Positions 60,690-61,766 of a stretch of DNA of 64,000 nucleotides are shown in pieces. The stretch is from assembly GCF_016026235.1 (NCBI RefSeq), contig NZ_CP065613.1. One strand, given 5' to 3'. A model generated the notes under the pieces. It ran no database searches, was not told where the DNA came from, and was given only the letters and a program-made list of their open reading frames with translations. The DNA comes from Escherichia coli (GTDB taxonomy: Bacteria > Pseudomonadota > Gammaproteobacteria > Enterobacterales > Enterobacteriaceae). Numbering within the stretch: position 1 is the stretch's first letter; each line of letters opens with the position of its first letter. A program made the translations under genes and the position numbers.

Positions 60690-61247
60690 ATGACCACTCA
60701 AATCTCTGTTGAAACTCTCTCCCCGATCACCCATAACCAGATTCCTGTTATTACCACCGAACTTTTGGCGCAGCTTTACGGCACTGAGCCGGTGCGTATT
60801 CGCCAGAATCATCATGAGAACAAAGTACGCTTCGTTGAAGGGAAACACTTTTTCAAAGTTGTTGGTAATGACCTTAAAGAATTGCGGGTAGCTTTAAACT
60901 ACTCACAAAATCCCATCTCTCCCAAAGCCCGCTCCCTCATCCTCTGGACAGAACGAGGCGCAGCACGCCACGCCAAAATGCTCGAAACCGATCAGGCGTG
61001 GGATGTGTTCGAAAAACTGGAAGACTGCTATTTCAGTCAAAAGGATCCGTCAACGCCAGTTTCATGCCAGAAAAGTTACGACACGCGAGTTCTCTGTTAT
61101 CAGAGAGGCGGTGTCACTGTTTCCACAATTCAGTTACGGGATGATGATATTGTTATTTCCCTTGAGTCATGGCTGGAACTGGCGAGAGCCAATGGTTGGT
61201 TTGTTGTTCGCAGAGATAAACTGGTGGAAAGGTTGATGCAGCTTTAA
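60690..61247 (+). CDS. ORF6N-domain protein (KilA-N/Bro-N superfamily, antirepressor-like)
   Basis: ITTELLAQLYGTEPVRIRQNHHENKVRFVEGKHFFKVVGNDLKEL block; ggag RBS. Confidence 0.6.
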   Translation: MTTQISVETLSPITHNQIPVITTELLAQLYGTEPVRIRQNHHENKVRFVEGKHFFKVVGNDLKELRVALNYSQNPISPKARSLILWTERGAARHAKMLETDQAWDVFEKLEDCYFSQKDPSTPVSCQKSYDTRVLCYQRGGVTVSTIQLRDDDIVISLESWLELARANGWFVVRRDKLVERLMQL

Positions 61248-61344
61248 AAAAGTTCTTGCATTTTTGCACATAAACTGCTTCAATTCCGGTAAGCTTCGCA
61301 AAGCTGTATCGCGAGGCGAATAGCAGACATGGACATTTGAAAGA

Positions 61345-61367
61345 GCCCGCTTTATGCGGGTTTTTTT
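61345..61367 (+). terminator. rho-independent terminator
   Basis: agcccgctttatgcggg hairpin plus T7. Confidence 0.55.
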
Positions 61368-61455
61368 ATACCTGAAAAACGGCACAGGACGTTAAACGTG
61401 CTGGTGGTCAGATGAGTTTGCAGATGTGATGACATATGGTTATTATTCTGCCTCC

Positions 61456-61532
61456 GGCCCTTTAGCTCAGTTGGTCAGAGCGAGCGACTCATAATCGCCA
61501 GGTCGCTGGTTCAAGTCCAGCAAGGGCCACCA
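61456..61532 (+). tRNA. tRNA with anticodon CAT (Ile2/Met type)
   Basis: Manual cloverleaf: GGCCCTT acceptor, loop CTCATAA, T-arm GCTGG/CCAGC, CCA end. Confidence 0.8.
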
Positions 61533-61533
61533 A

Positions 61534-61610
61534 CCACCACTAGCTCATCCGGATAGAGCATCAACCTTCTAAGTTGACGGTGCGAGGTTCGAGTCCTCGG
61601 TGGTGGGCCA
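61534..61610 (+). tRNA. tRNA-Arg (anticodon TCT)
   Basis: Manual cloverleaf: CCACCAC acceptor, loop CTTCTAA, T-arm CGAGG/CCTCG, CCA end. Confidence 0.8.
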
Positions 61611-61612
61611 GC

Positions 61613-61688
61613 GCCGACTTAGCTCAGCAGGCAGAGCAACTGACTTGTAATCAGTAGGTCACCAGTTCGATTCCGGTAGTCGGCACCA
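61613..61688 (+). tRNA. tRNA-Thr (anticodon TGT)
   Basis: Manual cloverleaf: GCCGACT acceptor, loop CTTGTAA, CCA end. Confidence 0.75.
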
Positions 61689-61691
61689 TAT

Positions 61692-61766
61692 GCGGGCATC
61701 GTATAATGGCTATTACCTCAGCCTTCCAAGCTGATGATGCGGGTTCGATTCCCGCTGCCCGCTCCA
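61692..61766 (+). tRNA. tRNA-Gly (anticodon TCC)
   Basis: GCGGGCATCGTATAATGGCTATTACCTCAGCCTTCCAAGCTGATGATGCGGGTTCGATTCCCGCTGCCCGCTCCA. Confidence 0.85.

Follow-up and report, generated by a model that had tools for sequence, protein, structure and literature searches.

An IsrK/C4-type antirepressor cassette lies between a DUF1133-family Q gene and its likely late promoter in an Escherichia coli prophage

Introduction

In the immI operon of phages P1 and P7, the antirepressor gene ant is gated by the c4 antisense RNA, and in Shiga toxin (Stx) phages the tRNA trio ileZ-argN-argO lies downstream of the late promoter pR'. The small RNA (sRNA) IsrJ of Salmonella has been reported to be required for efficient invasion. 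In this study, a prophage locus comparable to these systems was analysed in a 64,000-nucleotide (nt) stretch of Escherichia coli contig NZ_CP065613.1 (the window), where the gene of a Q-type antiterminator is followed by the gene of an ORF6N-domain protein, four tRNA genes and the lysis genes. RNA family matches, protein domains, synteny statistics and covariation were computed here for the window, and related phage contigs are given L-numbers (L003 is Gifsy-1). All parts of the region belong to known kinds, namely an IsrK/C4-gated antirepressor cassette, a Q-linked late promoter unit and late-leader tRNA cargo, and it is quite probable that the whole is a mosaic of three ordinary lambdoid modules: the cassette, the late promoter and terminator (pR'/tR') cognate to Q, and the late-leader tRNAs.

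The Gifsy-1 locus isrK-orf45(STnc1160)-anrP-isrJ was studied experimentally by Hershko-Shalev et al. 2016 (PMC4825925). Transcription of anrP was driven by the isrK promoter, and read-through of the IsrK terminator produced a translationally silent transcript of ~910 nt, which was seen with isrK and isrJ probes, stopped at the next terminator ahead of the tRNA and lysis genes, and was processed to an ~80-nt species, STnc1160 (PMC4825925). IsrK in trans raised the translation of anrP more than 100-fold, and AnrP increased the expression of antQ and induced the prophage (PMC4825925). In phage phi24B, knock-out of ant delayed induction and lowered the luminescence of a pR' reporter after induction (Fogg et al. 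2011, PMC3064807).

Results

The antirepressor cassette after Q

The locus from Q to the candidate late promoter unit contained the following features:

59863-60417, plus strand: Q-type antiterminator gene, 184 amino acids (PF06576 DUF1133, E=1e-105; phrog_753 "anti-termination protein Q-like", E=5e-79)
60414-60443, plus strand: PisrK, the cassette's own sigma-70-type promoter, TTGACT-18-TATATT (promoter scan, 10/12 matches)
60437-60489, plus strand: c4-a1b1 (Rfam RF03163, 52.2 bits against a gathering score of 46.7)
60450-60526, plus strand: IsrK-like sRNA, 77 nt (Rfam RF01394, 75.6 bits against 50; fold)
60505-60522 plus U-run, plus strand: intrinsic terminator of IsrK (terminator scan)
60554-60638, plus strand: C4-type antisense RNA (Rfam RF01695, 77.6 bits against 45, full length 1-87)
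60639-60689, plus strand: leader of the ORF6N gene (read directly from the sequence)
60690-61247, plus strand: ORF6N-domain antirepressor gene, AnrP homologue, 185 amino acids (Pfam ORF6N; phrog_2379)
61256-61367, plus strand: candidate pR'/tR' unit of the DUF1133 Q family (co-segregation with the Q family, alignment, fold z=-3.7)

Three RNA elements, c4-a1b1, isrK and C4, were thus located between Q and the ORF6N gene, all of them above the Rfam gathering score. PisrK was almost identical to the isrK promoter of Gifsy-1, and its -35 hexamer contained the TGA stop codon of Q. IsrK carried two target mimics, b1 (UUGGCGU, 60475-60481) and a1 (UACGGAG, 60492-60498). The C4 RNA folded with a minimum free energy (MFE) of -45.9 kcal/mol (z=-4.6), leaving both of its pairing sequences unpaired, a' as an exposed loop (UUUCCGUAC, 60595-60603) and b' as single-stranded ACGCCAA (60610-60616). 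The leader of the ORF6N gene contained the sites b2 (UUGGCGU, 60643-60649) and a2 (GUACGGAG, 60674-60681), and the Shine-Dalgarno sequence GGAG of the gene was found within a2, 8 nt before the AUG.

The pairing sites were followed in a BLAST-anchored alignment of 20 unique cassettes from related phages. Both a1/a'/a2 and b1/b'/b2 covaried three ways, with at least four a-types and at least four b-types in different combinations, and one b-type carried an extra base at the matching position in all three b sites. For the two cassettes of the window (the other is described below), the cognate duplexes were predicted to be ~10-14 kcal/mol more stable than the non-cognate ones, although these whole-length energies are crude, ignore intramolecular structure and were used only to rank cognate against non-cognate pairs.

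A small open reading frame (ORF) was present inside C4, with an in-frame AUG at 60558 and no stop before the ORF6N gene, the result being an in-frame fusion; this upstream AUG could give a 229-amino-acid form of the ORF6N protein. The orf45-like small ORF of the relatives comprised 14-45 codons in varying frames, and since neither length nor frame was kept, it was rejected as a conserved coding feature. In both window cassettes, the small ORF had no stop and ran in frame into the antirepressor gene.

The same order of elements was found in Gifsy-1, where Q is followed by a promoter overlapping its stop codon, a 77-nt IsrK with terminator, a C4-like RNA and an ORF6N antirepressor, and then by a short promoter/terminator unit (isrJ), a tRNA and the lysis genes. 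The b1/b'/b2 sequence was also shared, the equivalent of C4 being STnc1160/orf45'. The two loci differed in the a-type pairing sequence, in the C-terminus of the antirepressor, in orf45, which overlaps the antirepressor gene at ATGA in Gifsy-1 while the small ORF of the window runs in frame into the ORF6N gene, and in the tRNAs, with one tRNA-Arg (TCT) in Gifsy-1 and four tRNAs in the window. The Q proteins were unrelated, no similarity being detectable between the window Q and Gifsy-1 AntQ, and so were the short-RNA units downstream. Other copies of the cassette stand apart from Q. One lies in the nin region of VT2-Sakai, its boundary falling exactly at the PisrK equivalent; L020 and L038 have it upstream of Q, and the present prophage has a second one in its early-left part. 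Since it stands both beside unrelated Q families and far from Q, the cassette tracks no Q family.

The ORF6N protein matched Pfam ORF6N PF10543 (E=3.5e-20, residues 12-97, model positions 3-86 of 86) and, end to end, the anti-repressor family phrog_2379 (E=3e-94), and was 56% identical to Gifsy-1 AnrP (E=1e-65). When the DNA of its gene was compared across L001-L045, the C-terminal half (61041-61250) was 97-100% identical in the cassette-bearing contigs, and the N-terminal ORF6N half (60690-61040) was 74-99% identical in the same contigs. A uniform C-terminal half next to a variable N-terminal half indicates a recombination boundary inside the gene, and the uniformity of the C-terminal half across these contigs links that half to the Q/pR' module. 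The antirepressor gene was split by insertions of ~0.8-2.4 kb, presumably insertion sequence (IS) elements, in L009, L017 and L018, and two of these three contigs had the identical four-tRNA array.

The candidate late promoter unit

The candidate unit consisted of a -35 hexamer TTGCAT (61256-61261), a TG-extended -10 hexamer TTCAAT (61279-61284), a conserved leader GCTTCGCAAAGCTGTATCGCGAGGCGAA (61293-61320) and a tR' hairpin with U-run (61340-61367). A short leader RNA of ~75 nt (about 61291-61367) is predicted from it.

To place the unit relative to Q, segments of the window were mapped onto 80 viral contigs encoding the same Q family (DUF1133). In 38 contigs Q was followed by the cassette, 41 had no cassette, and one ended right after Q. 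The segment homologous to 61251-61340 was present in every contig that extended far enough (77/77). In all 41 cassette-free contigs it began ~10-25 nt past the Q match, with the -35 (TTGATT) overlapping the Q stop, and in 36 cassette-bearing contigs it lay directly after the antirepressor gene, the other two ending before that point. The alignment was near-invariant in the -35 (TTGCAT or TTGATT), the 17-bp spacer, the TG-C-TTCAAT element and the leader GCTTCGCAAAGCTGTATCGCGAGGCGAA; the stem sequence of the terminator differed between variants, and the hairpin and U-run were kept in all of them. The unit was present with zero, two, three or four tRNAs and with lambda-type or class II holins, and complete E. 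coli genomes include cases where the DUF1133 gene adjoins it directly, with the same four tRNAs behind. In PhiR47_1, by contrast, the tRNA and holin module was ~95% identical, but Q, promoter and leader were all different. Being kept with the Q family whatever follows and changed with another Q, the unit tracks Q, as a late promoter at which Q is loaded must do. The segment 61256-61367 is therefore likely to be the true pR'/tR'. Because the unit that tracks Q lies downstream of the ORF6N gene, that gene is placed upstream of pR' and under its own promoter.

A corresponding element was recognised in Gifsy-1. The IsrJ element (L003 33406-33525) consists of a promoter TTGCAA-17-TATATT, a 75-nt RNA and a terminator, and IsrJ-like elements adjoin the stop codon of Gifsy-1-type Q genes (60% identity) in cassette-free Klebsiella/Enterobacter phages (L086 and L087, around 1501-1610), where a tRNA and a holin follow. 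In Gifsy-1, the start of isrK (34316) and the terminator of isrJ (33406) are as far apart as the published transcript is long, ~910 nt, and the corresponding distance in the window (60450-61367) is ~917 nt. The published transcript thus spans isrK to the isrJ terminator, which is read as tR', and IsrJ itself is probably the late-promoter leader RNA of Gifsy-1, as far as the position of its element tells. A search of the window for an isrJ homologue found none. The isrK model gave a sub-threshold match at 61293-61366 (19.9 bits, E=0.076), which is probably due to chance or to a generic hairpin-plus-terminator similarity.

The second cassette

Another cassette was found in the early-left region of the same prophage (48668-49491):

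49491-49463, minus strand: promoter TTGAAA-17-TATAGT (early-left region)
49456-49380, minus strand: second IsrK-like RNA (Rfam isrK, 68.5 bits)
49355-49268, minus strand: second C4-like RNA (Rfam C4, 78.6 bits)
49213-48668, minus strand: Rha-domain antirepressor-like gene (Pfam Phage_pRha, E=4.7e-26)

Its a and b pairing sequences were both unlike those of the cassette after Q. Given these different sequences and the advantage of the cognate duplexes, the two cassettes should not cross-regulate. The BLASTP comparison of the ORF6N protein with the Rha-domain protein was not significant (E=1.9), and the only hint of a common C-terminal region in the two antirepressor-like proteins came from a PHROG profile. 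The presence of one cassette for the ORF6N type and one for the Rha type suggests that the prophage may have two independent RNA-controlled routes of induction.

The tRNA array

The candidate late promoter unit is followed by a promoter-like element and the four tRNA genes:

61418-61446, plus strand: promoter-like element TTGCAG-17-TATTAT (scan, as TTTGCA-18-TATTAT), 9 nt upstream of the first tRNA
61456-61532, plus strand: tRNA-Ile2, anticodon CAU, ileX/ileZ type (ARAGORN; Rfam 70.5 bits)
61534-61610, plus strand: tRNA-Arg (UCU), reads AGA (ARAGORN; Rfam 56.4 bits)
61613-61688, plus strand: tRNA-Thr (UGU), reads ACA (ARAGORN; Rfam 69.8 bits)
61692-61766, plus strand: tRNA-Gly (UCC), reads GGA (ARAGORN; Rfam 64.9 bits)

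An earlier reading of this DNA from its letters alone (the sequence-only reading) had named four tRNAs with anticodons CAT, TCT, TGT and TCC. All four were recovered by ARAGORN and scored above the gathering threshold of the Rfam tRNA covariance model (56-70 bits against 29), and the 3' CCA was encoded in each gene. That no toxin gene lies between the last tRNA and the holin, as it had also stated, agrees with the 292-bp gap, in which no toxin ORF was present.

The label Met given to the CAT tRNA by ARAGORN was rejected, since the tRNA was ~89% identical to K-12 ileX with the stem differences paired, and its homologues are annotated as tRNA-Ile by PGAP. It keeps C4-G69 and C5-G68, and presumably reads AUA after lysidine (TilS) modification. 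The tRNA-Arg (UCU) has an argN-like scaffold with a C1-G72 pair; a homologous body is found in the TCG tRNA of L025, whose CAT-TCG-TCT array is of the ileZ-argN-argO type. The tRNA-Thr was identical to K-12 thrU at 74 of 76 positions, both differences being in the D-loop, and the tRNA-Gly to K-12 glyT at 75 of 75. By these comparisons the array tRNAs are extra copies of host minor tRNAs.

The codon-usage comparison proposed in the sequence-only reading came out in its favour: the prophage ORFs of the window used the codons read by the four tRNAs more often than its host ORFs did, with frequencies per 1000 codons of 11.1 against 2.5 for AGA (4.4-fold), 10.4 against 7.4 for ATA, 14.0 against 9.2 for ACA and 15.0 against 9.7 for GGA (1.4-1.5-fold for these three), in a small sample of 20 prophage ORFs, three of them lysis genes.

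Four contexts that otherwise differ all had a TTG-type -35 and TATTAT 9-10 nt ahead of the ileZ-type tRNA. Because the promoter-like element at 61418-61446 is kept at the same distance from this tRNA, the array may also be expressed independently of Q. The position of the tRNAs relative to tR' depends on the assignment of pR' at 61256-61367.

Among relatives, the array comprised Thr-Gly at 15 loci, the same four tRNAs at five and CAT-TTT-TGT-TCC at three, and the stretch of pR' plus four tRNAs was found at 80% coverage or more in 13 of 5,426 complete E. coli genomes. In L001 (5469-5545), L005 (2595-2671), L015 and L045, the second tRNA had an anticodon loop CCUUUAA on the argN-like body which in the window bears UCU. 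It is Lys-UUU according to ARAGORN and PGAP, yet has C at position 33 instead of the near-universal U, and may be an anticodon-switched or degenerate tRNA. In several of the genomes H81-H87, the pR'-tRNA stretch was 95-97% identical and PGAP annotated a tRNA-Val where the window has tRNA-Gly, which suggests a further change in the array.

Lysis genes and prophage context

The lysis genes downstream of the array were:

62059-62274, plus strand: class II holin, first lysis gene (PHROG holin match; PGAP annotation of relatives)
62973-63506, plus strand: endolysin (PHROG endolysin match)
63488-63970, plus strand: Rz, after the endolysin

A 209-residue ORF (62278-62907) between holin and endolysin matched phrog_1085 and is DUF1327 in relatives. 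The gap between the last tRNA and the holin contained two long hairpins (61773-61898) with stems of 11 bp and ~14 bp (MFE -46.9 kcal/mol, z=-4.5), which were kept at 95-100% in relatives together with the class II holin module. The Q protein had an additional weak Pfam match to PF06530, and a PDB sequence search with it gave no match, hence no tie to the solved Q structures.

Upstream of Q, the nin-like region contained a hok/sok-type toxin-antitoxin pair (58090-58414; Rfam sok, 118 bits; a Hok/Gef ORF in relatives). The integrase (41575-42810) lies beside ttcA and next to the antitoxin sRNA RalA (43127-43348, 207 bits), whose span overlaps that of a small ORF on the minus strand. This Rac-like prophage is located at the Rac attachment region. 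Upstream of it, the host sRNAs FnrS (38704-38821) and McaS (31758-31853) were found. Two transposase-bearing insertions were present within the prophage, at 45127-46368 (a 413-residue ORF) and 54476-55659 (a two-ORF IS3-like element). The prophage may be defective.

Discussion

The arrangement described above can be read as a cassette (60414-61247) whose insertion point is precisely the junction of the Q stop codon with the late promoter that belongs to Q. The 77-nt terminated IsrK would be made from a constitutive PisrK, with read-through transcripts carrying C4 and the ORF6N mRNA. The a' and b' sequences of C4 would then pair with a2 and b2 of the leader and cover the ribosome-binding site of the ORF6N gene, leaving the antirepressor untranslated, and the a1 and b1 copies of IsrK would titrate C4 and switch translation on. 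The antirepressor would inactivate the prophage repressor, taken to be the CI-like one at 50853-51272, and so allow the expression of Q. Without Q, the unit at 61256-61367 would yield only the ~75-nt leader RNA and would also end the ~917-nt cassette transcript; with Q, the late operon transcript would include the four tRNAs, which are probably also expressed from a promoter of their own. For promoter activity, read-through, activation of translation by IsrK and induction of the prophage by AnrP, the Gifsy-1 orthologue is the only source, and the scheme applies them to the window by analogy. We infer the pR' assignment, the dependence on Q and the tRNA promoter from the sequence. A further-reaching reading holds that a portable cassette landed at the junction of the Q stop and the late -35 in two unrelated Q families, where it uses tR' as its terminator and sets an RNA-gated induction switch beside the late switch. 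On this reading, IsrJ would correspond to lambda 6S RNA and StxS as the terminated pR' leader RNA in Gifsy-1, the window would encode a ~75-nt leader sRNA, and two differently paired cassettes would gate two types of antirepressor; for this combination as a whole we see a little better than an even chance.

The sequence-only reading had placed pR'/tR' directly after Q, at 60414-60526, and had taken both the ORF6N gene and the tRNAs as Q-dependent cargo. The position directly after Q with the -35 over the Q stop, as for pR' in many lambdoid phages, fits that placement, and so do the good sigma-70 match and the intrinsic terminator. We nevertheless regard it as very improbable: the same promoter/IsrK/C4 unit follows the unrelated Q of Gifsy-1 and lies far from Q in VT2-Sakai, L020, L038 and the second copy of the window, a different conserved unit downstream of the ORF6N gene tracks the DUF1133 Q, and the long Gifsy-1 transcript ends before the tRNA and lysis genes (PMC4825925). 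The promoter and terminator next to Q belong instead to the IsrK sRNA of the cassette. The Q-like gene (DUF1133; PHROG "anti-termination protein Q-like") and the ORF6N-domain protein (PF10543) were both identified correctly in that reading, and its description as late-operon cargo holds for the tRNAs, which lie between the late promoter/terminator and the lysis genes as in Stx phages. It does not hold for the ORF6N gene, which is upstream of the likely pR' and would be governed by its own promoter and antisense RNA gating rather than by Q; an own promoter with no read-through from pR', to which the comparative evidence points, is what the same reading had named as speaking against late control. 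An antirepressor-like gene under late control had also been called unusual there; at this position an antirepressor gene is not unusual, one having been characterised experimentally in Gifsy-1 (PMC4825925).

Another explanation is that 61256-61367 is only the 3' untranslated region and terminator of an early operon, with the late promoter elsewhere, for example at TTGCAG-17-TATTAT before the tRNAs. TTCAAT is indeed non-canonical, and TATTAT is the better hexamer match. However, both hexamers of the unit are near-invariant in position, as are its 17-bp spacer and about the first 30 transcribed bases, while its terminator varies and keeps the hairpin and U-run, as would be expected if a Q-loading site close to the promoter were followed by tR'. 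The TATTAT element accompanies the ileZ-type tRNA also where Q is a different one, and it is missing from phages with the same Q that have no tRNAs or the Thr-Gly pair only; it tracks the tRNA and not Q, and thus cannot be a Q-specific site. This explanation is accordingly improbable. As to the protein, it may not act as an antirepressor on the repressor of this prophage; it could be a regulator that binds DNA, or serve in superinfection or anti-defence, and have only the N-terminal domain in common with AnrP. ORF6N is a widespread predicted DNA-binding domain (KilA-N/ORF6N superfamily), which counts for such a role, as does the fact that only the N-terminal ~117 residues are strongly conserved with AnrP, and the PHROG term "anti-repressor" is an annotation rather than an assay. 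The match to this PHROG is full-length, however, the gating is of the C4 type as for P1 ant and Gifsy-1 anrP, AnrP induces Gifsy-1 (PMC4825925) and induction of the phi24B ant knock-out is delayed (PMC3064807), so that a role other than antirepressor is conceivable but unlikely.

Several observations weigh against the favoured reading of an inserted antirepressor cassette ahead of the late promoter. In the -10 TTCAAT of the candidate pR', position 2 is not the usual A, and the consensus scan did not report this hexamer, whose plausibility comes only from its TG extension and its invariance; a clear sigma-70 match is thus absent from the scan at this site, while the terminator within ~100 nt is clear. 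Overall, the promoter scan found 3 sites against 3.0 expected in shuffled sequence. The upstream small ORF, which is needed for translational coupling in Gifsy-1, is not conserved, and such coupling is not found in the window, where this step may work differently. The protein diverges from AnrP in its C-terminal half, which bears on its target. The crudeness of the duplex energies and the small codon-usage sample count in the same direction.

These findings leave the current understanding of phage regulation unchanged. What is modestly new is comparative, namely the presence of the cassette at the Q/pR' junction in two unrelated Q families and of two differently paired cassettes in one prophage. 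For annotation they point to a trap: the first promoter and terminator after Q in such prophages are those of the IsrK of an inserted cassette and not the late promoter, so any gene located between Q and the real pR' escapes control by Q. For the uncharacterised DUF1133 Q family, they also offer a simple rule by which pR' can be found through comparison. Late-promoter leader RNAs, IsrJ among them, are suggested to be by-products of Q regulation that are able to gain a regulatory role, as was shown for StxS. In addition, the isrK locus of Salmonella is extended to E. coli prophages, including those of enterohaemorrhagic E. coli, and is tied explicitly to the c4 logic of P1.

Compared with the immI operon of P1/P7 (c4, icd, ant1/ant2; RF01695, RF03163), the window has the same succession of a1b1, C4, a2b2 and antirepressor; a2/b2 lie at the ribosome-binding site in both, and specificity depends on a few bases of a and b. 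It differs in that the a1b1 segment is a separate terminated sRNA (IsrK), that a homologue of icd is missing, that the antirepressor has an ORF6N domain, and that the phage is lambdoid and not P1-like. With Stx phages, the window shares the position of the tRNAs directly after the late promoter/terminator and ahead of the lysis genes, the first tRNA being of the ileZ/ileX type and the second having an argN-type body. The set itself is different (Ile2, Arg(UCU), Thr(UGU) and Gly(UCC), the argN-type body bearing a UCU anticodon), and neither stx genes nor other cargo follow the tRNAs. A constitutive pR' transcript ended at tR', as in the pR' leader sRNA StxS of Stx phages (PMC7547250), is predicted for the window too. 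Finally, in the ant locus of VT2-Sakai/phi24B the stretch from the promoter through IsrK and C4 to the N-terminal half of the antirepressor gene has ~81% DNA identity to the window, whereas the site of the cassette, in the nin region with Q ~2 kb downstream, and the P22-Ant-like C-terminus of the antirepressor are different.

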